Below are positions 1 to 11,689 of a stretch of 11,768 bases of DNA, one piece after another. The notes beneath the pieces were generated by a model. The model made no database searches, was not told the DNA's origin, and saw nothing but the letters and a program-made list of their open reading frames with translations. The stretch's first letter is position 1, and each line of letters opens with the position of its first letter. Position numbers and translations under genes: made by a program. This DNA comes from Deinococcales bacterium (GTDB lineage: Bacteria > Deinococcota > Deinococci > Deinococcales > JAAFIG01). Location: assembly GCA_043778225.1 (NCBI GenBank), contig JAYWGM010000106.1, positions 1-11,768 of the forward strand, written 5' to 3'.

Positions 1-50
<50 letters not shown>

Positions 51-149
51 AGGAGTTCTCAAAGTTAGCTCGAGTCACCCGCAACGGTGATGCTCGAGAC
101 AACTGCTTATTGCACTCAAACATCAAGGAAAAACCTTGTTTGAATTATT

Positions 150-188
150 GTGCCTCGAGATTAATGTCTCGAGGTGCTTTTTTGTTTT
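150..188 (+). terminator. Intrinsic terminator of the 16S transcript
   Basis: Stem GTGCCTCGAGA (150-160) / TCTCGAGGTGC (167-177), 11 bp with two G-U pairs and a 6-nt loop, followed by TTTTTTGTTTT (178-188). It sits 2 nt from the stop of the convergent serine hydrolase gene. Confidence 0.85.
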
Positions 189-190
189 GG

Positions 191-1330
191 TTATTTCTGA
201 TTTTCTTTCAGAATTTTTAATGCAGCTTCTTGATAAGCAACAATGTCCTTAAACTCCGAGCTTTCCCCTTGTCCTAAACGCAAAATAACAGCCTTTAAGT
301 GCGGAATGACAAAGATGTATTGTCCTAAAATACCATTAAAAAAAGTCATCGGTTTGTTTTCCAATTGACCAAGCCAAAACTGATAGCCATAAAAATTAAC
401 TTCTTTGTTTTCGGCATCCCTGAGTGTTAGATTGGGCTTTGTGGCTTGTGCAAGATAAGAACTCGAGACAAGTTGTTGGTTTTGCCATTTCCCATTTTGT
501 AGCACCAGTTGCCCAAGTCTAGCAAAGTCTCTTGGGGTGCTGTTAAAGCAGCAGTTACCTTTAGTTGTGCCGTTATCTTTGTCTAAACTCCAAGTTGCGT
601 TTTGTTCTGCTCCGATGTTTTGCCAAATTTTTTCACTGGCATATTGGCTGAGTGTTTTGCCTGTGGCGGCTTCGAGTGCCATGCCTAAAATCTGTGTATC
701 GGCGCTCGAGTAATACCAAACACTGCCTGCTGGGTGTTTAACGGTTAAACCAGTGACAAGTTTGCGTAAATCGTCGCCGTAATAAAGTTCTGTGGTTGGC
801 GAAGCAATCGAATTATAGGATTCATCCCAAGCCAAACCCGAAGTCATGGTCAGCAGATGTCTCAGGGTGATACTGGCTTTTTTGCCCTCTTTGAATTCTG
901 GGATAAAATCTGCTACTACTTGGTCTAAGCTACGAATTTTACCCTCTTCTAAGGCAATCCCAACCAGCATACTGACAATACTTTTTGCCATCGAAAAGGA
1001 TGCACTGTAGGCTTTGGCGTTATGTCCAGCCCAGTAACGTTCGTAAAGTAACTCGCCATTTTGGATGACCAAATAAGCAACTGTTCCATAACTTTCGATG
1101 GTTTTCAGCAGAGGCTCTTCAAGTTTAGTTTTGTTGTAATTACTGGCTAATTGCCAAGGTTGTGGTCTGCCTGCTTGTACAATACGACTGGCAAAAATTT
1201 GATGATCTTCGATGCCCGGTTCTTGATAGCTGATGACATTTTGGGCAAATGGTGTGCAGGCATAGAGCAGCAAACCACCCAGAATGCTTAGGGTTGAATA
1301 ACCCAGACTTTTGAATAACTGTTGTTTCAT
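191..1330 (-). CDS. Serine hydrolase, beta-lactamase class C / NylB-like family, probable lipoprotein
   Basis: SxxK motif FSMAKS, LRHLLTMTSGL, YYSS (Y-x-N equivalent), RDFARLGQLVL and GILGQYIFVIP. The N-terminal signal MKQQLFKSLGYSTLSILGGLLLYAC ends in a lipobox-like LYAC. The start is ATG 1330 or ATG 1339 rather than TTG 1366. Confidence 0.88.
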   Translation of the reverse strand: MKQQLFKSLGYSTLSILGGLLLYACTPFAQNVISYQEPGIEDHQIFASRIVQAGRPQPWQLASNYNKTKLEEPLLKTIESYGTVAYLVIQNGELLYERYWAGHNAKAYSASFSMAKSIVSMLVGIALEEGKIRSLDQVVADFIPEFKEGKKASITLRHLLTMTSGLAWDESYNSIASPTTELYYGDDLRKLVTGLTVKHPAGSVWYYSSADTQILGMALEAATGKTLSQYASEKIWQNIGAEQNATWSLDKDNGTTKGNCCFNSTPRDFARLGQLVLQNGKWQNQQLVSSSYLAQATKPNLTLRDAENKEVNFYGYQFWLGQLENKPMTFFNGILGQYIFVIPHLKAVILRLGQGESSEFKDIVAYQEAALKILKENQK

Positions 1331-1379
1331 GTTCCTCATTTTCCTCGATACCACAAAAAATTGCAAGGGTTATAGGCTG

Positions 1380-1385
1380 TATACT
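1380..1385 (+). promoter_or_regulatory. -10 box TATACT, 6 nt before ATG 1392 (leaderless-type promoter)
   Basis: TATACT-ttactc-ATG matches the -10/ATG spacing typical of leaderless transcripts in Deinococcus-Thermus. Confidence 0.55.
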
Positions 1386-1391
1386 TTACTC

Positions 1392-1529
1392 ATGTTCACA
1401 ATCATTTTGGCGACAAAATTGTTTGTCCCACCAGTTCGTTCTGAGGCGTTTGTGGGTTCTCGGTTGCTCGAGTTACTTGATAATGGATTATCGCGCAAAT
1501 TAACACTGACCGATGGGCAAGGGAGATAA
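1392..1529 (+). pseudogene. Truncated N-terminal remnant of a MalT-like LuxR-family ATP-dependent regulator
   Basis: MFTIILATKLFVPPVRSEAFVGSRLLELLDNGLSRKLTLT matches the MalT-family N-terminus (lLaTKLxxPpxR...RpRLlexLxxgLxrKLTLisAPAGfGKT). It stops after 45 codons, where the Walker A motif should begin. Confidence 0.7.
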
Positions 1530-1588
1530 TCAACTTAGCAGCCTTCGAATATTCGTAGAAAACTAACCTATTCCAATCCTGCGATGAG

Positions 1589-2095
1589 CTAAATCAACTC
1601 GAGCCGCATATAAACCTCGGTCAACCTCTCGCCTTCATGGCGCAGTGCATCGGGTTCTTTCCCCCACTCGAGAAAGCCTAAAGATTGATACAAGGCTAGT
1701 GCAGGGGCATTATGCTCGGCTACTGCCAAAAGCAGCGTCTCGAGTCCATCTATGGCTTTGGCTTGAGAAATCAGTTGCTCGAGTAAGCGCCGAGCTAAGC
1801 CTTTCCCTCGGTAATTTGGGTGAATATACACACCAAAAATATCGGCTTTGTGCTTGGTTTTGATTCGGTTTGAACATTCGCAACGCGCCAAGCCAATCAA
1901 AGTATCCGAATCAAATACCCCAAGCCCAAAAGAGACGCTGCTCGAGAACATGATTTTGATGCTTTCTAAACTGCGGTTTTGTTCGTCCATCACGCTCGAG
2001 CCAAAAGCCCGAGGCGATTCGGTCATGGCAAACACCCGTAAGTCCTTGAAGGCTTGGGCATCGGCTGGCTCGAGCTTACGAATGATGACTGCCAT
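1589..2095 (-). CDS. GNAT family N-acetyltransferase
   Basis: IRKLEPADA start, acetyl-CoA motif A (VYIHPNYRGKGLARRLL) and motif B (NAPALALYQSLGF); 168 aa. Confidence 0.92.
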   Translation of the reverse strand: MAVIIRKLEPADAQAFKDLRVFAMTESPRAFGSSVMDEQNRSLESIKIMFSSSVSFGLGVFDSDTLIGLARCECSNRIKTKHKADIFGVYIHPNYRGKGLARRLLEQLISQAKAIDGLETLLLAVAEHNAPALALYQSLGFLEWGKEPDALRHEGERLTEVYMRLELI

Positions 2096-2149
2096 GGTTT
2101 GACCTTTTAACCTTTTGACCTTGGTTTGACCTTTTGACCTTTTAACCCT
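2096..2149. repeat. 8-bp-period tandem array (CCTTTTRA / AAAAGGTY) arranged as 2 x 27 bp
   Basis: 2096-2122 ggtttgaccttttaaccttttgacctt and 2123-2149 ggtttgaccttttgaccttttaaccct fill the whole cdsA-GNAT intergenic space. Confidence 0.9.
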
Positions 2150-3018
2150 TAACTAAACACTGCCACGCTTAAAAAATAATATGCCACAGGCAGCGCAAAC
2201 AAGAGGCTATCTATACGGTCGAGTAAGCCACCATGTCCGGGCAAAAATGTACCACTGTCTTTTGCACCAAGGCTGCGTTTAATCACACTTTCGGCAAGGT
2301 CGCCAAGTTGGGCGGCTGATGACACCAGTATTGCAAAAAGCCAGATTTCCCAAACGCGCACTTCGGGTATAAAACTGCGAATCGCTTCTTGCAGAATAAA
2401 AACCATCAAGGCACTAAACGCCAAGCCGCCAATTGCCCCCTCCAAGGTTTTACTGGGGCTGATTTCTGGAGCGAGTTTGCGCTTGCCAAATAAACCACCA
2501 AAAATATATGCCCCAGTGTCGGAGGCATATGCGCCAACGGCGGCAATGATAGCGTACCAAAAACCAAGTACACCATTTGGGTAATAACGCAGCAACAAGC
2601 CAAACGACAGTAAAAACGGGATATACAGCATTCCAAATAAACTGGTCATGATTCGCTCGAGTGGGCGCTCGGATGGGCGCACAACCTCAACAATCATTAC
2701 CCACATCACATATGCCCACATCACGATTTCACGCCACGGGATTTTGGCGGGAATAAACCAGATGCCATCGCGTAGCCATGGCTGGCTGGCAAGCAGCATC
2801 AGCATCGCAAAAACATAGACACTGCGTCCGCCAACGGCTAATCCAGCTTTGCGAGCCATGTTGCGAAATTCGTATAAGCCGACACTGACTGCCACAGCAA
2901 TCATCAGGGTCAGGGTAATCCAACCAGCCCAAGTACAGACCACGACTGTGCCAAAGGCAATCAGTGACCAGAAAAGTCGTTGCGGTAAAGTGCTAAATGC
3001 ACCAGATTTGGCTGCCAT
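2149..3018 (-). CDS. cdsA: Phosphatidate cytidylyltransferase (CDP-diacylglycerol synthase)
   Basis: Multi-pass membrane protein with SDTGAYIFG, KLAPEISPSKTLEG, GDLAESVIKR and KDSGTFLPGHGGLLDRIDS. The likely start is ATG 3018 (MAAKSG...), preceded by TGgTAATCT, rather than TTG 3108. Confidence 0.95.
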   Translation of the reverse strand: MAAKSGAFSTLPQRLFWSLIAFGTVVVCTWAGWITLTLMIAVAVSVGLYEFRNMARKAGLAVGGRSVYVFAMLMLLASQPWLRDGIWFIPAKIPWREIVMWAYVMWVMIVEVVRPSERPLERIMTSLFGMLYIPFLLSFGLLLRYYPNGVLGFWYAIIAAVGAYASDTGAYIFGGLFGKRKLAPEISPSKTLEGAIGGLAFSALMVFILQEAIRSFIPEVRVWEIWLFAILVSSAAQLGDLAESVIKRSLGAKDSGTFLPGHGGLLDRIDSLLFALPVAYYFLSVAVFS

Positions 3019-3118
3019 AAGGTAAGAGATTACCACTGAACGGCTTCTGAGGCGAACTGTGCCATGGTTTGTTCTGGCTCGAGTTGGTCGGTTTACAAAA
3101 ATTATCAAAAGATTTATA

Positions 3119-3149
3119 AGATTTACTATTTTGTAAAAGTAGTGAATCT
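3119..3149. promoter_or_regulatory. Imperfect inverted repeat in the AT-rich divergent promoter region (candidate operator)
   Basis: AGATTTACTA-TTTTGTAAAAG-TAGTGAATCT has 10-bp arms with 1 mismatch and inner TTTT/AAAA symmetry. Confidence 0.4.
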
Positions 3150-3234
3150 ACTCAGAACTATTTTAATATATCGTTTTAGACAAGATAAATTGAGTTTTTA
3201 GGCTTTTTCTACCTAAATTTTTTATTGTAGCTTC

Positions 3235-3263
3235 TTGACAAATTTGAAAATATAAGTAAAGAT
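3235..3263 (+). promoter_or_regulatory. Candidate sigma70-type promoter for the SHOCT/DUF2089 operon
   Basis: Perfect TTGACA (3235-3240), a 17-nt spacer and a weak -10 AAAGAT (3258-3263). SD AAGGAG at 3291-3296 precedes ATG 3304. Confidence 0.5.
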
Positions 3264-3303
3264 ACTGCATAAGTTTTATAAATTATTGCCAAGGAGAAAA
3301 ATC

Positions 3304-4758
3304 ATGAGTCAGCAAAGCCGTATCCTCGAGTTGGTCGAAAAAGGCGCAATCACCCCCGAGCAAGCCCAAGAACTTTTTTCGGCACTCGAGACCAAAATCC
3401 AAGCCGAAGAACCGCAAGATTACGCCTTGCCTCGAGTTCCACCTGTTCCCCCAATGCCCCCAGTCCCACCTGTTCCGCCAATGCCTCGAATCCCGAGCGC
3501 CAAAAGTGGCAGACCACTGAATACGGGTGGGCTGAGTTTTGAGCAGATTGTGCAGATGGGGCAGATGGGCATCAAACCCGATTATGTCAGTCAGTTACAT
3601 CAGGCTGGACTCGAGCAATTGTCTTTCCAAGAAGTGCTGGCGCTTGGTACACATGGCATCAAGCCCAATTTTGTGCGTGAAATGTTTGACCTTGCCAAAG
3701 AACACGAAGCGGTCAAACTGACTTTTCAAGAAATTTTATCGTTCGGAATCCATGGTATCCAACCTAATTTTATCCGTGAGATGTACGAAATTGCGGCACA
3801 GACCAATCAGCGTCTTTCTTTTGCCCAAGTGCTGACTTTTGGGATTCATGGTGTTTCCTCGAGTTATATCCGCGAGATGTACGAACTGGCAAACGAATTT
3901 GGTGTAGCACAGCTTTCTTTTGAACGAATTGTTCACTTGCGAAATTCTGGTATCAGCCCAGACTATGTGCGGCAAATGCTGATGAGTGGAATGCTCGACC
4001 TCGAAAGCCTGACTGCCCCAAGTCGCCGCAACCGTGACCTTGAGCGTGAGCAACGCCAAGTGGCGCGAGAACAACGCGAACGCGAACGTGAAAAACGCGA
4101 AGCAATGCGCGAACTGAGCGAAAAACAAGAAGAAATAAGCGAAAAACAAGCCGAAATAAGCGAACAGCAACGTGAAGTGGCACGGCAACAGCGCGAAATT
4201 GCCAAGCTCGAAGCCAAGCGCCAACGGGTCAAGGTTCAACTCGAGCAAACCACCAAAACCGAAAAGCGTAGCGAACTCGAGGAGCAAATAGAAGAACTCG
4301 ATGATGAAATTTCGGATGCTGAGGACGAACTTGAGGAGGCTCAGGAAGCAGCTGAAGAACTCGAGGAAGAATTATCAGAGCTACACCAAGAACTCGAGGA
4401 GGCGCGGGCAGAAATCGAAACTGAATATGAACAAAATAATGAACAAGTCTCGATTGAAATAGACTCGAGTCTAGGACAAAAAATCAAGGGAAACATCAAA
4501 GCGGCTGTCACGATGCTGTCCACGCTGATTAAACCAAGCACGCCAGTCATGCCCGAAATGCCCGAACCCATAAGCAGCGCCTATGATTTTCAAGAACAAC
4601 TTGCCACGCTTGAGCCAGCCGCCAGAAAAGAAGCGCTTGAAGAGCGCCTTGCGGACAGCAACGCCGCCTTAGGTGTAACCCAAGAAGTGGCTGAACGCCA
4701 AAACCTCCAGGACTTGATTTCGCAATTACAAGCCGAACTCGGTAAACTCGAGGCATGA
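3304..4758 (+). CDS. Uncharacterised protein: N-terminal SHOCT-like domain, Pro-rich linker, five ~32-aa helical repeats, long acidic coiled coil
   Basis: RILELVEKGAITPEQAQELFSALE is SHOCT-like (YvlB/LiaX N-terminal type). It is followed by a PPVPPMP linker, repeats LSFxxIxxxGxxGIxPxY/FVREM and a Glu/Arg-rich coiled coil (~4024-4440). The SD supports ATG 3304. Confidence 0.85.
   Translation: MSQQSRILELVEKGAITPEQAQELFSALETKIQAEEPQDYALPRVPPVPPMPPVPPVPPMPRIPSAKSGRPLNTGGLSFEQIVQMGQMGIKPDYVSQLHQAGLEQLSFQEVLALGTHGIKPNFVREMFDLAKEHEAVKLTFQEILSFGIHGIQPNFIREMYEIAAQTNQRLSFAQVLTFGIHGVSSSYIREMYELANEFGVAQLSFERIVHLRNSGISPDYVRQMLMSGMLDLESLTAPSRRNRDLEREQRQVAREQREREREKREAMRELSEKQEEISEKQAEISEQQREVARQQREIAKLEAKRQRVKVQLEQTTKTEKRSELEEQIEELDDEISDAEDELEEAQEAAEELEEELSELHQELEEARAEIETEYEQNNEQVSIEIDSSLGQKIKGNIKAAVTMLSTLIKPSTPVMPEMPEPISSAYDFQEQLATLEPAARKEALEERLADSNAALGVTQEVAERQNLQDLISQLQAELGKLEA
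3436..3489 (+). repeat. 27-bp tandem duplication encoding the Pro-rich linker VPPVPPMP(P/R)
   Basis: gttccacctgttcccccaatgccccca / gtcccacctgttccgccaatgcctcga. Confidence 0.8.
3532..3990 (+). repeat. Five tandem protein repeats of 29-33 aa
   Basis: Units start at 3532 (LSFEQIVQMGQMGIKPDYVSQL), 3619 (LSFQEVLALGTHGIKPNFVREM), 3718 (LTFQEILSFGIHGIQPNFIREM), 3814 (LSFAQVLTFGIHGVSSSYIREM) and 3913 (LSFERIVHLRNSGISPDYVRQM). Confidence 0.9.
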
Positions 4759-5123
4759 ATAAATACCCGCTCATGACCAAAGACCCAATTACCGGCGAAG
4801 AATTGGTTGTCACTCGGCTCGAGAATAAACAGCGTGGACTTGTTTTAGAAGGCGAATTTGCTTTTGGCTGGATTGGTAAACTGACCTACGAACAACTCGA
4901 GTTCGCAGGATTACTGCTGCGTTTTCGTGGCAATGTCCAACGCCTTTCTGAAAGCCTCGGGGTCAGTTATAACACCGCCAGAGCCAGACTCGATGCCATT
5001 GTCGAAAGCCTAGGCGATGCTGACCCACAGACCAGCGACGATGTTTTAAGCCAACTCGAGCGCGGCGAACTGAGTTTCCAAGAAGCCCTCACACAGATTA
5101 AGGGGAAAAGGGGAAAAGGTTAA
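4755..5123 (+). CDS. DUF2089 family protein (HTH plus C-terminal SHOCT-like; putative transcription regulator)
   Basis: LVVTRL...EGEF N-terminal part, LTYEQLEF...RGNVQRLSESLGVSYNTARARLDAIVESLG HTH, and DVLSQLERGELSFQEAL SHOCT-like tail. It overlaps the upstream gene by ATGA. Confidence 0.88.
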   Translation: MNKYPLMTKDPITGEELVVTRLENKQRGLVLEGEFAFGWIGKLTYEQLEFAGLLLRFRGNVQRLSESLGVSYNTARARLDAIVESLGDADPQTSDDVLSQLERGELSFQEALTQIKGKRGKG

Positions 5124-5184
5124 AAGGTTAAAACAATAACTTTTGCCCTTTTTAGCCTTTGCCCTTTTAACCTTCGCCCTTAAC
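5100..5184. repeat. Bipartite 8-bp-period array: purine arm then pyrimidine arm (hairpin-forming)
   Basis: aagggg-aaaagggg-aaaaggtt-aaaaggtt-aaaa, spacer caataac, then ttttgccc-tttttagcc-tttgccc-ttttaacc-ttcgccc-ttaac. Confidence 0.85.
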
Positions 5185-5202
5185 TGGTAAACTTCTTGGG
5201 CT

Positions 5203-5661
5203 ATGGCAGACATAACCCCATTATTGACCCTTGAAACCCTTTCGGCATACCTCAAAAAGCGCGATGTCAATCATGAAATCGAGCAGCAGGAACAGAATCG
5301 TTTTATTCGTATGAACTGGAAATTTGAAATGGGCGATGCTGGCGTTATTTTAAGCCTCAACGATGCCCAAGGTGGCACGAGCCGCCTCGAGATTACCTGC
5401 GTGACCCATAACCAGTACCGTGGTCGTCGGGCGCAAGTGGTCGAGATGCTCAATGTCCGCAACCGTGAACGGGCTTTTACCCGCAGCATGGACGAAGACG
5501 GCAATATGTTCCTCGAGTATATTGGTTTTTACCCATCGTTTATGCCATTCCCAGAAGAGCTTTTTGAAACCATTTTTGGTGGCGCACTGGTGCATTTCCA
5601 AGACGATTACGCGACCCTCGAGGGTGTTCCAAGCCCAGCCGCCGCCCAAGCCCAAGCATGA
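5203..5661 (+). CDS. YbjN-domain protein (DR1245-like, type III secretion chaperone-like fold)
   Basis: [54 protein letters not shown] and [11 protein letters not shown] closely resemble the Deinococcus YbjN-like protein DR1245 as I recall it. Confidence 0.8.
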
Positions 5662-5668
5662 GGAGCAT

Positions 5669-5745
5669 AGGTTAAAAGGTAAAAGGGTTAAAAGGTTAAA
5701 AGTTATTTTTCCTTTTTTCCTTTTTCCCTTTTTCCCTTTTTCCCT
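5669..5745. repeat. Bipartite 8-bp-period array: purine arm then pyrimidine arm (hairpin-forming)
   Basis: aggtt-aaaaggt-aaaagggtt-aaaaggtt-aaaagtta then tttttcct-tttttcct-ttttccct-ttttccct-ttttccct, ending 2 nt before ATG 5748. Confidence 0.88.
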
Positions 5746-5747
5746 GA

Positions 5748-6149
5748 ATGACCCTAGACCATATTGGCATTGCCACGCCCGACCTCGAGTTGGGCAGTCT
5801 GCCTTATCTTGCCATGGGTTTGGTTGCCTTGCCCGATGAAGAAGTGAGTGGGCAAAAGGTGATGGTTCGGGCTTTTCAAGCCAAAGACAGCCTGATTGAA
5901 TTATTGATGCCTACTGACCCGAGCAGCCCAATTGCGGTTTTCCTCGAGAAACGTGGGGCTGGAATGCACCATCTTGCCTTTCGGGTCGAACATCTCGAGA
6001 CCGAAATTTTACGGCTCGAGGCGCAAGGTGCAGTTTTTATTAACAAAGAACCTCGAGTTGGGCGGGCGGGTACTCGGGTGGTGTTTTTGCATCCAAAATG
6101 GAGCGCTGGCACATTGATTGAATTGGTCGAGCATCGCTTTGTAGATTGA
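5748..6149 (+). CDS. mce: Methylmalonyl-CoA epimerase (VOC family)
   Basis: LDHIGIA, E.V..QKV, IELLMP...SPIAVFLEKRGAGMHHLAF and FLHPK..GTLIELVE, with the metal ligands H/E/H/E. Confidence 0.9.
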   Translation: MTLDHIGIATPDLELGSLPYLAMGLVALPDEEVSGQKVMVRAFQAKDSLIELLMPTDPSSPIAVFLEKRGAGMHHLAFRVEHLETEILRLEAQGAVFINKEPRVGRAGTRVVFLHPKWSAGTLIELVEHRFVD

Positions 6150-6176
6150 ATTGCTGTCTGATACAATAAAATTAGA

Positions 6177-6602
6177 GTGAAACGCGCCTATGTCAAACTC
6201 GGCTGGTGGTTACTCGCGTTTATTCACGTCGGGTTAATCTGGTCGTTCTCGAGTCGGTCGGGGAGCGAAGTTGGTTTACCGCCGCCTTACGATAAAGCGG
6301 CACATTTTTTTAGTTTTGCCCTACTTGGTTTTTTATTTGCTAAAGCCTTTGGGCAGGCGCGTCTTGGTTTTTTGCTGGCAGCGCTTTATGGCGTTATTGA
6401 TGAAATCCACCAGAGTTTTGTACCATTGCGCGATGCCAGTTTTTGGGATTGGTTGGCGGATGTGCTCGGGGCATATTTTGGGGCTGGCAGCGCTCCTCAA
6501 GCCAAAAGCGTGATGCAGACCAAGCAAGCTACTGAACCGCCCAAACCTCGAGAACTCGAGCAAATGAAAGAAAAGAAGAAAATAGGTATCACAAAGTCAT
6601 GA
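6177..6602 (+). CDS. VanZ family membrane protein
   Basis: DKAAHFFSFALLG and YGVIDEIHQSFVPLRDASFWDWLADVLG. GTG start preceded by TGaTACAAT (6159-6167). Confidence 0.88.
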   Translation: MKRAYVKLGWWLLAFIHVGLIWSFSSRSGSEVGLPPPYDKAAHFFSFALLGFLFAKAFGQARLGFLLAALYGVIDEIHQSFVPLRDASFWDWLADVLGAYFGAGSAPQAKSVMQTKQATEPPKPRELEQMKEKKKIGITKS

Positions 6603-6691
6603 TTCTGGCGGTATAAAATACAAGACTCGAGCCAGACTGCTTGATGCCACAATCAGCATTTCAGCCGCGTCTGTGATGACAGGTCAGTAAA

Positions 6692-7729
6692 TTATTTTGG
6701 CAAATTCTTTTGTAAATAACTCAGCCAGTTGCCACCCACTACCCCAGCCCGATGCTCGGGTGGCACAATTGCCCCAATTTTCTCGAGGTCGCTAATCGTC
6801 TCAAAGCCTTCTGGGGCTTCCTCTGCGCCAAATCCACCATCGGAATCTGAACCAATGCCAAGGCGCTGCCAGCCAATAATGCTTGCCATATGCTCAAAAT
6901 GCGCCTTGACCTGATGCTCGAACGTTACCAGTACGCGGCGGTCTTCTCGAGTCCAACGGGCATCTAAAAAGCTATTGAGCAACACCACCCCAACCCGCCC
7001 ATCTCGAGCCAGAATTTGCTGCAACATCGCATCGGTCAAATGCCGATTGGTGCTGGCGCGGAGTGCAAAAGCATTGCTGTGCGAGGCAATTAAGCGCGTG
7101 ATGCCAACCTCTAAACTTTCCCAAAAGGCTTCCCAGCTTTGGTGCGAAGCATCGAGAATCATTTGTTTACTTTCGACTGCCGCAATCAGTTCGCGCCCCA
7201 GAGCGGTTAAGCCACCGGGCATTTCTGTACCGCCAGCGTAGCGAGTTCGTCCCCAACTTGTGCCAAGAATTCGCACCCCACGCCCATGCCAATACTCGAG
7301 TTCAGACGGATTACGAATCGGGTCTGCGCCCTCCATTAAAATCACTAAGCCCGTTATTTTATCGCTTGCCCATAACTCGAGATGATGCGCCAAATCGGTT
7401 TGGCTAAGAATTATTCGCACTGCGCCACGCGCCGCCCAGCCTTCATAAACCGCTAGTTGTGCGACTGCCTGAGCGTGGGCTTGGTCTGGGGTGCTGTAAC
7501 CGCGTGGGTCAATCACATCTGGTTTTGTCCATTGCACGGCTGGTGCAGCAAAAAGGGTCGCAAATGCGACCGCTACACCCGCTTGGCGCAGGGCTGGCAA
7601 GGTCGTGGTGCATAGACCATGTTTGTTATTTGGCTCGAGCTTGCGGATTTCTTGTGGCGTTAGATGTTCTAAATCGCGCCCATAAAAAACTGCTCCAAAT
7701 GCCAAATCTAAATGTCCATCTATAATCAT
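6692..7729 (-). CDS. Membrane dipeptidase, peptidase M19 (renal dipeptidase family)
   Basis: IIDGHLD (HxD), ILMEGAD, GLTALGRELI, ILDASH, IASHSNA, RHLTD and IGSDSDGG. Confidence 0.93.
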   Translation of the reverse strand: MIIDGHLDLAFGAVFYGRDLEHLTPQEIRKLEPNNKHGLCTTTLPALRQAGVAVAFATLFAAPAVQWTKPDVIDPRGYSTPDQAHAQAVAQLAVYEGWAARGAVRIILSQTDLAHHLELWASDKITGLVILMEGADPIRNPSELEYWHGRGVRILGTSWGRTRYAGGTEMPGGLTALGRELIAAVESKQMILDASHQSWEAFWESLEVGITRLIASHSNAFALRASTNRHLTDAMLQQILARDGRVGVVLLNSFLDARWTREDRRVLVTFEHQVKAHFEHMASIIGWQRLGIGSDSDGGFGAEEAPEGFETISDLEKIGAIVPPEHRAGVVGGNWLSYLQKNLPK

Positions 7730-7734
7730 ACTCG

Positions 7735-7740
7735 AGTATA
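7735..7740 (-). promoter_or_regulatory. -10 box TATACT, 5 nt before the dipeptidase ATG (leaderless)
   Basis: The minus strand reads gggTATACTcgagtATG; no SD is present. Confidence 0.65.
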
Positions 7741-7778
7741 CCCAAGCTCATCTGACGAATGGGTTGGCTCGAGAAGGT

Positions 7779-8111
7779 TCAGTCTTGGGTTTCGTCCTGC
7801 ATCTGGGCAGCCTTATCTTGTACCCAACGGCGATAGAGGTCGGCTTTGTATTCGGATGCCTTGGCGCGGTTCATCAAGACCGCAATTGCGCCGTATAAGG
7901 ACAGCAAAAGCGCTAAAAGTTGTAAAACTGGATTGAATTGCAGCCCAAAAAACAACACCAAACCGAGCGGAATTGCCCAGCCCGAAAATGGCAATAAACT
8001 TGGGGCAGCTTTGCCACTCCATGCCTCGAGTTCGGCTAAGGTCATAAACTCTATTGTCTCTTTACCCTCGGCAAAAGTCGCCCATTCTCCAGCTTCGGTG
8101 GTGCTATTCAT
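7779..8111 (-). CDS. Small hypothetical membrane protein (110 aa, two hydrophobic segments)
   Basis: The start is reassigned to ATG 8111 (MNSTTEAGEW...), because the longer ORF from 8438 overlaps the SBP gene and its terminator. Hydrophobic stretches are WAIPLGLVLFFGL and VLQLLALLLSLYGAIAVLM. Confidence 0.72.
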   Translation of the reverse strand: MNSTTEAGEWATFAEGKETIEFMTLAELEAWSGKAAPSLLPFSGWAIPLGLVLFFGLQFNPVLQLLALLLSLYGAIAVLMNRAKASEYKADLYRRWVQDKAAQMQDETQD

Positions 8112-8117
8112 GTCAGT

Positions 8118-8123
8118 ATTGTA
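8118..8123 (-). promoter_or_regulatory. -10 box TACAAT, 6 nt before ATG 8111 (leaderless)
   Basis: The minus strand reads gagTACAATactgacATG. Confidence 0.65.
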
Positions 8124-8132
8124 CTCAGAATT

Positions 8133-8164
8133 AAAAAAACAGGAAAGAGCATAAACTCTTTCCT
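8133..8164 (-). terminator. Intrinsic terminator of the ABC substrate-binding protein gene
   Basis: Perfect 9-bp stem AGGAAAGAG (8141-8149) / CTCTTTCCT (8156-8164) with a 6-nt loop, followed on the minus strand by G-T7. Confidence 0.88.
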
Positions 8165-8181
8165 CCTTTTGGCTCGAGTCT

Positions 8182-9690
8182 TTATTTGGTTTTGAAGACG
8201 CGCACGGCGTTGGAATTTGGTGTCGGTTGTCCAGCCCACCAATTGTAGACATTCTTGCGGGTTGCGGCGATGTACGGCGCACTGAATGCCCAGATACCGG
8301 GAACTTGGTCAGCCAACATAATCTGCATCGCGGCGTACAGACGGTAGCGCTCCGAATCGGTGCTGGCAACAAGGGCTTTGTCGTTGAGGGCTTTGTATGG
8401 GGCATTGTTCCAGTTGAAGTAATAACCATCTCGAGCATAGCGGTCTAAGTCAAAGGATTCGGCGTGACCAATAATCGTGAGGTCGTAGTCTTTATTTAAG
8501 AAGACTTTTTGAATCCAAGTGTTAAATGGCACAAGTTCGATTTCGGCATTGACCCCGACATTGGCAAGTTGCTGCACATAAATTTCGGCGGTGCGGCGTT
8601 CGATTGGAAATTCGTTGGCAACTGTAAACTTGACTTTGAGGTTACTCTGACCCGCTTGGGCAAGAAGTTTTTTCGCCAATTCTGGGTTGTGCGGATTGCG
8701 ATTATTGAGGTCAATGTAATACTGTTGACCGGGCGAATTAAAGCTACCGATGACTGCGCCATAACCAAAAAAACCACCTTGAACGATTGCTTTTTTGTCC
8801 ATTGCAGCCGTAAAAGCTCGGCGTACCCGAATATCATCAAAGGGTTTACGTTTGTTGTTCATCGAAACGGTAATTTCGCCACTCGAGCTACCAACCACGA
8901 CATTAAAATCTTTTTTCAGGCTTTCGACTTGTTCGGCTGGAACATTGTAGCCAATCACATCTATATCGCCAGAGCGCAAACCGGCAATTTTGGCGTTTTG
9001 GTCATCGCCCAAAAAGCGAAATGTGACATTATCCAAATACGGCAGGTTTGCGACATGATAAGTATGGCGGTCTAAACGGACATTGACCCCACGATTCCAA
9101 GCCCCGAGCTTAAATGGACCTGTGCCAATTGGGTCGGTTTTGAGTTTTTCGCGTCCTGCTGCGGTTGAAAACATTTCGTTGGGTTGAATCGTGCTTTCGG
9201 CTCGAGCCAAGTTGTATAAAAATTCGTTGTTGGCTTTGGTCATCTTAAAGACAACCGTTAATGGGTCTGGGGTACTAATACTCGAGATGTCTTGGTAATA
9301 GGTTGGGCTGGTATGACCGCTTTTTTCGTCTCGAGCCACATCGAATTTAACTTTGACATCGGCAGAAGTAAAAGCACTGCCATTGTGGAATTTAACATTG
9401 CGCTTGAGCTTAAAAGTGTAGGTTAGGCGGTCTGGTGTGACTGTCGGCATGGCGGCTGCCAATTGCGGCGTAATCCGCCCATTTTCGGCAAGTCCGACTA
9501 AACCCTCGAGTACATTCTGGTGCATCATGCGGACAATTTCTGCGCCAGCGCCCTGACTGGGGTCTAGGAAGGCAGGTTCGACATTCATCGCCACCACCAA
9601 GTTGCCACCGCGTACAGGAGCGGGCTGGGACGATTGCGCCATTAAAAGTGCGGCGGCGGGAAGGGCGGCGAGCAGTGCAAGTTTCTTCAT
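8182..9690 (-). CDS. ABC transporter substrate-binding protein, family 5 (peptide/nickel, DppA/OppA-like)
   Basis: Signal peptide MKKLALLAALPAAALLMA, LDP, VLEGLV, YTFKLKRNVKFHNGSAFTSADV, PIGTGPFKL and PFDDIRVRRA. SD GGAGG (9695-9699, minus strand) supports ATG 9690. Confidence 0.95.
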   Translation of the reverse strand: MKKLALLAALPAAALLMAQSSQPAPVRGGNLVVAMNVEPAFLDPSQGAGAEIVRMMHQNVLEGLVGLAENGRITPQLAAAMPTVTPDRLTYTFKLKRNVKFHNGSAFTSADVKVKFDVARDEKSGHTSPTYYQDISSISTPDPLTVVFKMTKANNEFLYNLARAESTIQPNEMFSTAAGREKLKTDPIGTGPFKLGAWNRGVNVRLDRHTYHVANLPYLDNVTFRFLGDDQNAKIAGLRSGDIDVIGYNVPAEQVESLKKDFNVVVGSSSGEITVSMNNKRKPFDDIRVRRAFTAAMDKKAIVQGGFFGYGAVIGSFNSPGQQYYIDLNNRNPHNPELAKKLLAQAGQSNLKVKFTVANEFPIERRTAEIYVQQLANVGVNAEIELVPFNTWIQKVFLNKDYDLTIIGHAESFDLDRYARDGYYFNWNNAPYKALNDKALVASTDSERYRLYAAMQIMLADQVPGIWAFSAPYIAATRKNVYNWWAGQPTPNSNAVRVFKTK

Positions 9691-9867
9691 ACATCCTCCG
9701 TTGGAGCTAAAAAAGCATATCCATCTTACACAATCAATTGCTGTACCAAAGAATACGAACAAGCGTTTGTTTGGAGCGAGTCTAAGTATTCCTTGCCAAG
9801 AATTATCGCATAAAAATCAGGCGGCAACCATGTACCGAGAAACAATTCTCCGACAATACTGAGATGC

Positions 9868-9940
9868 ACCAATGTCGCGCTTGTACGAAGAACCAATGTC
9901 GCTCTTGTACGAAGAACCAATGTCGCTCTTGTACGAAAGA
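9868..9940 (+). repeat. 3 x 24-bp tandem direct repeat
   Basis: accaatgtcgcgcttgtacgaaga (9868-9891), accaatgtcgctcttgtacgaaga (9892-9915) and accaatgtcgctcttgtacgaaaga (9916-9940), with no spacers. Confidence 0.97.
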
Positions 9941-9957
9941 CAAAAGGCGCTTAAACT
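9929..9957 (+). promoter_or_regulatory. Candidate leaderless promoter of hrcA
   Basis: TTGTAC (9929-9934, inside repeat unit 3), a 17-nt spacer, TAAACT (9952-9957), then 5 nt to ATG 9963. Confidence 0.6.
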
Positions 9958-9962
9958 CTTCT

Positions 9963-10895
9963 ATGGTCTCGAGGCGCGAACAATTGCTTGAAATGGTGGT
10001 CGAGCAATTTATTTTGCAAAAACGACCTGTGCCAAGCCTTGACCTTGCTAACCCACTCGGGGTGAGTAGCGCCACGGTTCGCAATGAACTGGCAGCACTC
10101 GAGGAAATGGGTTTGTTGCGTCAACCCCACACCAGTGCTGGGCGTGTGCCGACCCGCGAAGGCTGGCGAACGTATGCCAATAAATTTATTCCACCTAAAC
10201 CGCTCCCAGAAGCCAGTTTGGAGCATCTGGAAATGGCAATTGGCAGTGTCGGTGGTGAACAACGCTTTAGGATGGCGATGATGCTTGCCTCGAGTTTAAG
10301 TGGCTATGCTGCCGTCATGACCCTCGCCCCCAAAGAAGCCCGCATCGAAACGATTTTATTATCGGTACTCGAGGGCGGACGGGTTTTGGCGGTGTTGCTT
10401 TTTGAGGGTGGCATGGCTCGAGAAATTGTGCTGGATGTCGGTTTTCGCCCCGAGCGCGATGTGCTTGAACGGCTCGAAAAAGCCCTGCGCGAACCGCCAC
10501 ACGAAAGCCATGAAATCCCCGCCAAGTTACAGCGTCTCGAGCAACAAGCCAGTCCAGCCGTGGCAAGCCTTGCCCAGAGCCTGCGCCAACGCTGGGGCGA
10601 AATTGCCACGGCGGTTTCTTACTCGAGTGGTGCAACTCCAGTTTTAACCGAACCAGAAAGCAACGATGTGGTTTTTTTGCGCGGTGTTTTGGATTTACTC
10701 GAGCGTCCCAACAGCCCAGCCAATTTGTCGCCTGGCTTGGTGTTAAGTGTGGACGACCCAGATGGTATCTCGAGCATTACAGTGGCGTTTAAGTCCAACC
10801 TTGGCAGGGCATCGGTCAGTATTTTAGGACCAACCCGAATGCGTTATGCCAAAGCCATCAGTGTGGCACAAGCGGTCGCCAATGCTTTAGGCTGA
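9963..10895 (+). CDS. hrcA: Heat-inducible transcription repressor HrcA
   Basis: RREQLLEMVVEQFI...PVPS, VSSATVRNELAALEEMGLLRQPHTSAGRVPT..G.R.Y and C-terminal ILGPTRMRY. Homology begins at ATG 9963; an alternative in-frame ATG lies at 9864. Confidence 0.93.
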   Translation: MVSRREQLLEMVVEQFILQKRPVPSLDLANPLGVSSATVRNELAALEEMGLLRQPHTSAGRVPTREGWRTYANKFIPPKPLPEASLEHLEMAIGSVGGEQRFRMAMMLASSLSGYAAVMTLAPKEARIETILLSVLEGGRVLAVLLFEGGMAREIVLDVGFRPERDVLERLEKALREPPHESHEIPAKLQRLEQQASPAVASLAQSLRQRWGEIATAVSYSSGATPVLTEPESNDVVFLRGVLDLLERPNSPANLSPGLVLSVDDPDGISSITVAFKSNLGRASVSILGPTRMRYAKAISVAQAVANALG

Positions 10896-11081
10896 CTCGA
10901 GCTACCTTTCAAGTCATGGGCTTGTAAACCAAAGTCGAGGGTTAAGAACTCGGTCACAATCAATTTACCCATATGCTCCTTTGGCTGCTTATCAGTAACC
11001 CATCATACTGTTACACCCTCGAAGAACTCGAGCAGAAAAAATTGAAGCCTCGAGCAAAGGCTGTGGCTCAAGGCTTTAAGG

Positions 11082-11112
11082 TATAATCCAAGAATCTTAA
11101 TTTTACTAGGAG
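11082..11112 (+). promoter_or_regulatory. -10 box and ribosome-binding site for the RelA/SpoT-domain gene
   Basis: TATAAT at 11082-11087, AGGAG at 11108-11112 and ATG at 11117. Confidence 0.55.
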
Positions 11113-11116
11113 AGAC

Positions 11117-11689
11117 ATGATAGCTCCAGAACGCTATATACAACTTGGATTACCATTAGACTATTTTCAAATTGCTCAAGAAATTAGCAGCCTGACCACA
11201 AATACCATTCCAACAGTGGATATTGGCACAGCCTATATGGATGCAAAAACAAGTGTCGAAGAATTTAGAATAGCAATGTCTAAACTTGCTAAAGGCTTAA
11301 AATGCAGTCATGTTTGTCGTCCTGGTACGGGCATAAAAAACCCAGACCGAATTCTCGAGAAATACTCAAAAAGTGGCGTTGTTCCAACCGATATTTTAGG
11401 TGCGAAACTTATTGCTCCATCGTTGCAACAAATGTATCGTCTGGCTCGACAAATCCCACGACACTTCACAATACTACAATTCAAAGACCGAGTTATCGAA
11501 CCGCAAAGAACAGGCTACCGAGATTTGCAATTTGTGATTCAATTTAAGACCATGCCAGTTGAATTAAAAATTTGCCACCAGATATTTGATGAAATAGACT
11601 CTGTAGAACACAAAGTCTACGAAATTACCCGTTCATTCCAAGGCATAACCAATATCCCAATTCGGCAATTTCATACCAAGTTATGTTAA
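11117..11689 (+). CDS. Stand-alone RelA/SpoT synthetase-like nucleotidyltransferase domain protein (divergent small alarmone synthetase-like)
   Basis: The motif order matches Syn1-4: IKNPDRILEK, TDILGAKLI, DRVIEPQRTGYRDLQ and PVELKI, followed by EHKVYE. No hydrolase, TGS or ACT domains are present. Confidence 0.75.
   Translation: MIAPERYIQLGLPLDYFQIAQEISSLTTNTIPTVDIGTAYMDAKTSVEEFRIAMSKLAKGLKCSHVCRPGTGIKNPDRILEKYSKSGVVPTDILGAKLIAPSLQQMYRLARQIPRHFTILQFKDRVIEPQRTGYRDLQFVIQFKTMPVELKICHQIFDEIDSVEHKVYEITRSFQGITNIPIRQFHTKLC

Follow-up and report, generated by a model that had tools for sequence, protein, structure and literature searches.

What makes one six-letter palindrome recur every 166 bp through an ordinary piece of bacterial DNA? 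The piece in question is contig JAYWGM010000106.1 of GenBank assembly GCA_043778225.1, from a Deinococcales bacterium; its whole length of 11,768 nucleotides is called the window below, and it contains 71 copies of CTCGAG, the first at position 69 and the last at 11354, in genes and in the spacers between them. The source assembly (G000, in which the window is contig C106) measures 4.03 Mb in 107 contigs, is 89% complete and has a GC content of 48.7%. An earlier examination of the letters alone, the sequence-only reading, had counted about 71 sites by hand and proposed that CTCGAG behaves like HIP1, the highly iterated palindrome (HIP) of cyanobacteria, through a process acting on DNA and not through codon bias. 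We find that CTCGAG is almost certainly a genuine highly iterated palindrome, in that the six-letter DNA word is itself the target of a directional force, whatever the DNA encodes. There is equally little doubt that the word has filled the genomes of its family to about one site per 150–230 bp and is still maintained in them.

The hand count proved exact. Dinucleotide-preserving shuffles of the window gave a mean of 1.51 copies and a maximum of 7, and none of 200 reached 71. Allowing one mismatch yielded 120 matches, hence 49 one-off sites spread over 18 variants (~2.7 each) against a shuffle background of ~36, so that single-mismatch variants are, as had been said, few each and near background. 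The three sites cited as evidence that all codon frames are used do read as described within the open reading frame (ORF) 3286–4758, and all sites listed as non-coding lie outside Pfam-supported genes. The sites of the window to which we refer are as follows.

69..11359, no strand assigned: all 71 CTCGAG sites, from the exact count with shuffle control.
150..177, plus strand: terminator-like hairpin with a 12-pair stem formed from sites 154 and 168 and followed by TTTTTTG, the top-ranked terminator-like site.
3325..3330, plus strand: frame-0 site CTC GAG (Leu-Glu) in ORF 3286–4758.
3431..3436, plus strand: site in the frame xCT CGA Gxx, CCT CGA GTT (Pro-Arg-Val), in ORF 3286–4758.
3858..3863, plus strand: site in the frame xxC TCG AGx, TCC TCG AGT (Ser-Ser-Ser), in ORF 3286–4758.
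6547..6560, plus strand: closest site pair of the window, 8 bp from start to start; such short gaps are rare genome-wide.
7731..7773, no strand assigned: two intergenic sites (7731 and 7768) in the spacer that separates the M19 dipeptidase gene from the gene that follows, both poorly conserved.

The enrichment is a property of the genome and is not limited to this contig. G000 holds 24,877 copies of CTCGAG, one per 162 bp, at an observed/expected ratio (O/E) of 26.7 relative to base composition, making it the commonest hexamer, and all 107 contigs carry it at 4.0–10.6 sites per kb. Only three of 749 5-kb segments have eight or fewer sites, all of them low in GC (34–42%), as expected of imported DNA. 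The preference is sharp: 68% of TCGA tetramers lie inside CTCGAG, whereas the nine one-off variant pairs are not enriched (O/E 0.15–1.41), and CTCGAG outnumbers the average one-off variant ~32-fold (24,877 vs. 13,793/18). If mutation is simply balanced by selection or conversion, we infer from this ratio a population-scaled advantage of about ln 32 = 3.5. Positions flanking the word are nearly flat in composition, so that the sites cannot be copies of some longer repeat unit. The exception in the flanks is CCTCGAGG, which is ~3-fold rarer than flank frequencies imply (243 copies vs. ~800) and suggests a separate avoidance of that octamer, or of CCTC/GAGG beside CTCGAG.

Other palindromes are strongly avoided in the same genome. 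GGCC occurs 131 times (O/E 0.01) and GATC has an O/E of 0.13; in 4 Mb there is one copy each of GGGCCC, GACGTC, and AGGCCT, with 3 of GGCGCC and 24 of GAGCTC. Together with ~23 DNA methyltransferase genes, this avoidance marks a restriction-rich lineage.

An excess of a word that can be read as CTC GAG invites explanation by codon, dipeptide, or compositional bias, or by copies of a mobile element or repeat, the last of which is contradicted by the flat flanks. It is true that 59% of coding sites are read in this frame as Leu-Glu, and that in high-GC outgroups such as G022 codon preference alone gives a ~3-fold excess of both CTCGAG and GAGCTC over one-off variants. In G000, however, the density is the same in coding (6.18 sites per kb) and non-coding DNA (6.11 per kb, O/E 32). 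In 1,275 spacers of 20–150 bp, chosen as too short to hide genes, it is 6.55 per kb (O/E 39), 37 times that of the mean one-off variant, and convergent spacers are richer still at 9.5 per kb. Synonymous codons were also permuted within each gene, which keeps the protein and the codon usage, a usage already inflated by CTCGAG. Ten such shuffles left 2,322–2,426 sites (mean 2,372) against 22,402 observed, a 9.4-fold excess present in every frame (13,221, 4,514, and 4,667 observed vs. 1,664, 384, and 324 shuffled, the first being the CTC GAG frame).

Codon tables dependent on context, which together with non-coding DNA served to assess codon bias, point the same way. CTC makes up 9% of Leu codons unless Glu follows and GAG 23% of Glu codons unless Leu precedes, so both are rare outside the word, and its codon-swapped counterpart GAGCTC has only the 24 copies given above; yet 69% of Leu-Glu pairs are written CTCGAG. 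Arg is encoded by CGA in 88.9% of cases within the context CT_G vs. 13–14% elsewhere, and Ser by TCG in 82% within C_AG vs. 11–17% elsewhere. The proteome is affected as well, in that the Leu-Glu dipeptide has an O/E of 2.32 (19,108 pairs, ~10,900 above expectation), as against 0.97 for Glu-Leu. Codon or compositional bias and repeat copies thus have next to no chance of being the explanation, and the earlier claim of a process at the level of DNA is borne out by the equal density in genes and spacers and by the all-frame excess after shuffling.

The density is flat around gene starts and stops, and of 349 close pairs of non-coding sites only 30 resemble terminators. A general role in promoters or terminators was considered and is ruled out by these two observations. 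Genes for tRNA contain 6 CTCGAG where 32.6 would be expected at genomic density, and here strong structural constraint overrides the force on the word. ARAGORN predicted 68 tRNA genes in G000, some in a tight cluster (C19:9900–12800) of which four members contain CTCGAG.

The distances between sites carry further information. In G000 the hazard of a next site is 1.95 per kb at 6–12 bp, climbs to 4.75 at 18–24 bp and 5.9–6.3 at 30–60 bp, levels off at ~7.5 per kb at 90–250 bp, and declines over long distances owing to site-poor islands. Gaps of 8–11 bp occur at 0.2–0.35 of the exponential expectation, and counts are under-dispersed in 200-bp segments (variance/mean 0.81) and over-dispersed at 2 kb and above. 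As heterogeneity cannot give a rising hazard, neighboring sites must interfere with one another below ~90 bp. Sites in direct tandem (gap 6) do not occur, as GAGCTC, a word nearly banned from the genome, would arise from them. Such interference fits a function that is satisfied by one word per short stretch, and deletion between close 6-bp repeats could also contribute to it.

The sites are also conserved. Five genomes of the same genus were aligned to the window at 75–81% DNA identity and kept 32/48, 18/29, 31/55, 18/26, and 22/32 of its sites, in all 121/190 (56–69% each), whereas of other hexamers 21–33% are identical; these figures come from one window and from relatives that are not independent. 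Even where a codon pair encodes the same dipeptide in both species, the DNA is identical in 73/96 CTCGAG pairs vs. 2,571/6,228 others in frame. Alignment of relatives, which the sequence-only reading had proposed as a check, hence gives sites conserved about twice as well as other hexamers. Sites have been lost mainly to synonymous Leu-Glu variants (CTTGAA, CTCGAA, and CTTGAG), while some losses alter the protein (CTCAAG, CTGGAT, CTCCAG, and CTCGTG), and the relatives hold 2–22 CTCGAG at positions without a site in the window. Of the two poorly conserved intergenic sites, 7731 is kept by one of four aligned relatives and 7768 by none of four. As judged from these alignments, the force on CTCGAG is still acting and the sites are maintained.

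Conserved sites, regularly spread and without any link to gene starts or ends, are what a nucleoid or chromosome-organizing protein binding the word would leave, and interference over tens of base pairs could be the footprint of such a protein. This is the function that Xu et al. (2018) favor for HIP1, where a periodicity of 10–90 kb supports it in the excerpts of that paper used here. We found no candidate protein, and the idea leaves unexplained why the same word is methylated in cultured relatives (see below); we consider it improbable.

The extreme density belongs to one family. All 18 relatives of G000 in the same family, which span five genera, carry 4.3–6.8 CTCGAG per kb, with 0–568 copies of the control GAGCTC, so that the signature is shared by 19 of 19 family genomes. 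None of 162 other Deinococcota genomes (sets of 12 and 150, partly overlapping) exceeds 3.4 sites per kb. Elsewhere a genus of 77 genomes is depleted (26–1,010 CTCGAG per genome), a genus of 27 genomes has CTCGAG about equal to the GAGCTC control, and three genera of one other family of the order (20 genomes) have moderate densities of 1.4–3.4 per kb. Density does not track GC, since the family ranges from 48.7% to 60.6% GC and its member at 60.6%, the single-contig genome G013, still has 4.6 sites per kb. The ratio of CTCGAG to the mean one-off variant, taken in 20-kb samples, is ~3 in G022, 5–8 in three outgroups, and 14 in the high-GC family member; the value of 32 for G000 was computed genome-wide. 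The ~3-fold ratio in G022, where GAGCTC is equally common, is a pure codon effect. Viral contigs with three sites within 78 bp were, among the matches listed, mostly high-GC phages, and none was established as having the family signature; GAGCTC is as common as CTCGAG in the listed phages, and the excess there is therefore a codon effect.

What agent reads or writes the word? Active N6-methyladenine (m6A) methylases of CTCGAG are on record for cultured Deinococcota, namely M.Mru1279II of Meiothermus ruber (99.5% of sites detected), M.Mch9957IV of M. chliarophilus (94.1%), and M.Mhy14884I of Marinithermus hydrothermalis (94.6%), and for all three the cognate-enzyme column is empty (Blow et al. 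2016, PMC4752239, S3/S5 Tables). These records, like the moderate densities in three genera of another family of the order, bear on the suggestion in the sequence-only reading of a similar enrichment in Meiothermus. We scanned five Pfam methylase families (PF00145, PF01555, PF02086, PF02384, and PF07669) in G000 and over 31 genomes. None of the ~23 methylases of G000 could be assigned to CTCGAG, and NCBIfam and Pfam names give no specificity. PF00145 was not found in G002 and G010, PF01555 not in G002, G013, and G014, PF02086 not in G006, G008, and G010, and PF02384 (at 1e-30) not in G002, G006, and G012. PF07669 was present in 17/18, but as unrelated proteins, and an all-against-all BLASTP comparison of 19 gamma-class candidates resolved them into several unrelated groups.

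Among individual candidates, a 650-residue protein on C65 with the architecture MerR-HTH/N6_Mtase/TaqI_C is the only TaqI_C-type type II gamma-class enzyme of G000. A 501-residue methylase on C92 has one real homologue among the 31 genomes (43% identity, G006), and the TaqI_C-type methylase of the outgroup G025 has orthologues only in G022 and G026 and none in the family. Four large methylases of G000 are type ISP-like or MmeI-like. Two regions (C1:34616–37834 and C99:49951–52971) encode paralogues of ~1,000–1,070 residues with type ISP coupler, methylase, and specificity domains, with neither a nuclease nor a helicase part recognized within the ORF. The density of CTCGAG in methylase genes was tried as a filter for long residence and rejected, as most of these genes hold 3–7 sites per kb even at 36–38% GC; low-GC, mobile restriction-modification genes still carry 3–5 sites per kb. 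The C65 methylase itself lies in a complete type II restriction-modification pair (G000:C65:14500–17200) within a defense island, next to a PIN toxin-antitoxin pair and to a nuclease of YhcG type. Its 264-residue neighbor was called REase_II by PADLOC (E = 4e-69) and belongs to a family of 3,944 homologues, with up to 74% identity in Betaproteobacteria; it had no match in the plasmid collection.

The methylases of the cultured relatives would suit a methyl-directed repair mark of the kind that Elhai proposed for HIP1 (PMC4390886, in excerpt). Methylated CTCGAG would tell the old strand from the new or direct mismatch repair, and selection would make a 6-bp word as dense as a 4-bp one such as GATC is by chance. 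The density in G000, one site per 162 bp, is indeed of the same order as one per 256 bp, the chance density of a 4-bp word, the orphan methylases of the relatives are m6A enzymes, and interference between close sites is expected if only coverage matters. Against this stand the lack of a methylase conserved across the family and of any match to the MutH family in G000 (the control matched only in E. coli), and also the statement in the same source that MutL-dependent, methyl-independent repair is the rule outside some Gammaproteobacteria. We regard such a mark as unlikely.

Dcm and Vsr affect word counts in E. coli, which we count in favor of another possibility, a biased repair or gene conversion without function. 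Here a nuclease would correct near-cognate mismatches to CTCGAG in the manner of very-short-patch repair, leaving the word as a by-product. Equal coding and non-coding densities, the effect on all frames, and a bias that appears weak and uniform all agree with it, and the S3 Table of PMC4752239 gives V. (Vsr-type) partners for the 5-methylcytosine (m5C) methylases that act on CTCGAG in Nocardia and Rhodopseudomonas. Vsr (PF03852) nevertheless had no match in G000 (the control matched in 3/14 genomes), and no C5 methylase was found in G002 and G010, these genomes being incomplete. Nor is there any depletion of TTCGAG and CTTGAG, to which deamination would lead (O/E 1.37 and 1.41), and independent correction of sites does not predict repulsion out to ~90 bp. 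Biased repair of this sort therefore seems a poor prospect.

Chi words are over-represented markers of self-DNA in other bacteria, and CTCGAG might by the same logic be a recombination hotspot that shields the ends of self-DNA from a RecBCD or AddAB nuclease. The nuclease domain PDDEXK_1 (PF12705; RecB/AddA/AddB) and RecC (PF04257) had no match in G000, which is 89% complete, and Chi words are asymmetric and far less enriched, so that we hold this role to be very improbable. The XhoI model PF04555 likewise had no match in G000, a result that is uninformative as its control was silent too. Of the mechanism put forward in the sequence-only reading, then, the process acting on the word stands, while an orphan CTCGAG methylase is no more than a possible agent; none of the ~23 methylases could be assigned to the word or has orthologues across the family, and no Vsr was found in G000.

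The explanation that we prefer, to which as a whole we give a probability of roughly 0.4, is that CTCGAG is a HIP-type word serving as a mark of self-DNA in DNA exchange. Taken by itself, the second part, that the word is read during the uptake and/or homologous recombination of kin DNA, is possible and put forward tentatively. Fragments or alleles bearing CTCGAG would be preferentially taken up or recombined, and word-bearing variants would then spread by molecular drive and weak selection, as has been proposed for uptake sequences and for HIP1. An exchange mark would account for genes and spacers being equally dense in sites and for the weak, selection-like strength of the force. It would also explain why close sites repel one another, a single word sufficing for each short stretch, and why imported islands are poor in the word. 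The 3–5 sites per kb in mobile restriction-modification genes, the methylation of the word in relatives, and recent data on HIP1 can be joined to the same picture. By analogy with the cultured relatives, which N6-adenine methylate the word, methylation may be part of the mark in this family.

Several points weigh against an exchange mark. To our knowledge, uptake sequences are much longer than 6 bp, and a word this short would have little specificity alone. No receptor, nuclease, or methylase reading CTCGAG was identified in these searches. At the thresholds used, no methylase class occurs in every family genome, near-complete ones included, and the C65 methylase has orthologues in only 2/18 family relatives in the 31-genome search and a type II restriction gene adjacent to it. 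Biased repair would equally give equal gene and spacer density and site conservation, and deletion between close 6-bp repeats, instead of a coverage function, could underlie the way in which neighboring sites interfere. As to the material, gene models were greedy non-overlapping ORFs of at least 100 amino acids (3,531 genes, 89.7% of the genome), a crude proxy made with no trained gene finder, and most family genomes are metagenome-assembled genomes (MAGs) of 57–94% completeness, in which gene absences are weak evidence.

A stronger form of the exchange mark is more doubtful in its details, namely that CTCGAG is the palindromic 6-bp uptake or recombination sequence of a kin-discriminating DNA exchange system, spread through the family by molecular drive and present in weaker form in related genera, where this word is methylated. 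If true, its density would exceed that of any known uptake sequence several times over, ~11,000 dipeptides of the proteome would have been rewritten by it, and HIP1 and CTCGAG would be two independent inventions of one principle.

Whatever its function, CTCGAG offers an independent case for comparative tests of HIP1, for which three decades have brought no explanation and which has been examined in a single phylum. It differs from HIP1 in word, length, and phylum and is extreme, with one site per 160 bp and Leu-Glu at 2.3 times expectation. The order shows a graded series (depleted, codon-level, moderate, and extreme), and gene content can therefore be correlated with the density of the word, while the mapped orphan m6A methylases of Meiothermus and Marinithermus bring knock-out, transformation, and mutation-rate experiments within reach. 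In practice the word flags imported DNA and skews codon and dipeptide statistics, which is relevant to gene finders and codon-based analyses of these MAGs.

The genes of the window are of an ordinary housekeeping kind. Pfam matches identify a serine hydrolase with a beta-lactamase fold, a GNAT protein, CdsA, a DUF2089 pair, a YbjN-like protein, a glyoxalase, VanZ, the M19 dipeptidase, an SBP_5 binding protein, and HrcA, the last with homologues at 94% identity in four MAGs named as Deinococcales or Deinococcota bacterium. At the contig edge lies one further feature.

1..48, plus strand: presumed 3' end of a 16S rRNA gene, ending in GGATCACCTCCTTTCT, with 0 CTCGAG; read from the sequence.

We take positions 1–48 to be the 16S rRNA end from general knowledge; an Rfam search of them gave no match, the fragment being too short. 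They are followed by a spacer with four CTCGAG and the strong terminator hairpin at 150–177, and this spacer is 80–92% conserved in relatives. Given the hairpin after the 16S end, no 23S gene lies directly downstream. ORF 3286–4758 encodes a 490-residue protein with a SHOCT-like N-terminus, three internal repeats of 33 residues, and a long Glu-rich coiled-coil segment in which CTCGAG encodes many of the Leu-Glu pairs. Arrays of 8-bp tandem units resembling GGTTAAAA/TTTTAACC occupy intergenic DNA at 2090–2155, 5093–5181, and 5653–5745. They flank the YbjN-like gene in opposite orientations and so form long inverted repeats, and similar stretches occur at many places in genomes of the same genus. 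Three tandem 24-bp units (9863–9951), whose translation gives QCRxCTKx repeats, stand just upstream of the hrcA frame or at its 5' end. The contig end (11673–11768), ~97 bp located 3' of the last ORF, has copies at 82–94% identity on many contigs of five genomes of the same genus, and is probably a mobile-element end or another intergenic repeat.

How does CTCGAG compare with known systems? Literature searches returned no report of its hyper-abundance in Deinococcota, and none joining CTCGAG with the phrase "highly iterated palindrome". By term search, the text of Elhai (2015, PMC4390886) contains neither CTCGAG nor "Deinococc", and that of Xu et al. (2018) neither "Deinococc" nor "Thermus". 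The nearest relatives of the phenomenon by word are the orphan m6A methylases of cultured Deinococcota, which share the same hexamer and have no listed restriction partner. Nocardia has an orphan CTCGAG methylase and a cluster of CTCGAG at its replication origin, and what the main text of PMC4752239 describes, in the portions used here, is motif clustering at origins, as distinct from the genome-wide hyper-abundance seen in this family. XhoI/PaeR7I-type restriction-modification, including the CTCGAG system of M. smegmatis (PMC7526240, in excerpt), also has the same recognition word. The targets of type II systems are normally avoided, whereas CTCGAG is enriched 27-fold.

The uptake sequences of Pasteurellaceae (uptake signal sequence, USS) and Neisseriaceae (DNA uptake sequence, DUS) are 9–12 nt long, not palindromic, and present about once per kb, and those of Haemophilus are evenly spaced. 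Like them, CTCGAG is enriched in genes and spacers, family-wide, alters peptides, contributes at times to terminator hairpins, and has a spacing more even than random; unlike them, it is a palindrome of 6 nt, and its even spacing is of short range only. Thermus and Deinococcus are naturally competent, and we know of no sequence-biased uptake in Deinococcota.

The closest parallel is HIP1 (GCGATCGC), as the sequence-only reading had maintained, since the excess of CTCGAG proves to be genome-wide, in all frames and in spacers, shared by the family, and conserved site by site. In the excerpts of Elhai (2015) and Xu et al. (2018) on which this comparison draws, HIP1 too is a short GC-rich palindrome, over-represented (15- to 300-fold) in genes and between them, common to a large lineage, conserved in position between genomes, scarce in imported DNA, and of no settled function. 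HIP1 is also reported, in the parts of two further sources used here, to enhance transformation in a way that depends on methylation and is proposed to be an uptake sequence (10.1101/2024.09.10.611283; PMC13756078). The differences are as clear. The HIP1 core CGATCG has an O/E of 0.20 in G000, and CTCGAG has six letters instead of eight and belongs to another phylum. One-off variants are common for HIP1 and not enriched for CTCGAG. The methylases DmtA and DmtC accompany HIP1, while no conserved cognate methylase was found for CTCGAG in the family.

Some cyanobacteria have alternate HIPs, namely GGCGCC in Calothrix, GCsGC in Cyanothece PCC 7822, and rCCGGy in Oscillatoria PCC 10802 (Elhai 2015, PMC4390886, in excerpt). 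These are 5- or 6-mer palindromes that fill the role of HIP, as CTCGAG does here. They are confined to single strains in a phylum that otherwise bears HIP1, each with a methylase specific for its word, whereas CTCGAG marks 19 of 19 genomes in five genera, in which no such methylase was identified. With ~6,200 sites per Mb, against 300–2,700 per Mb given for HIP1 in the excerpted text of Elhai (2015, PMC4390886), CTCGAG is a HIP-type word in a new phylum, a new word, and one of higher density than HIP1.

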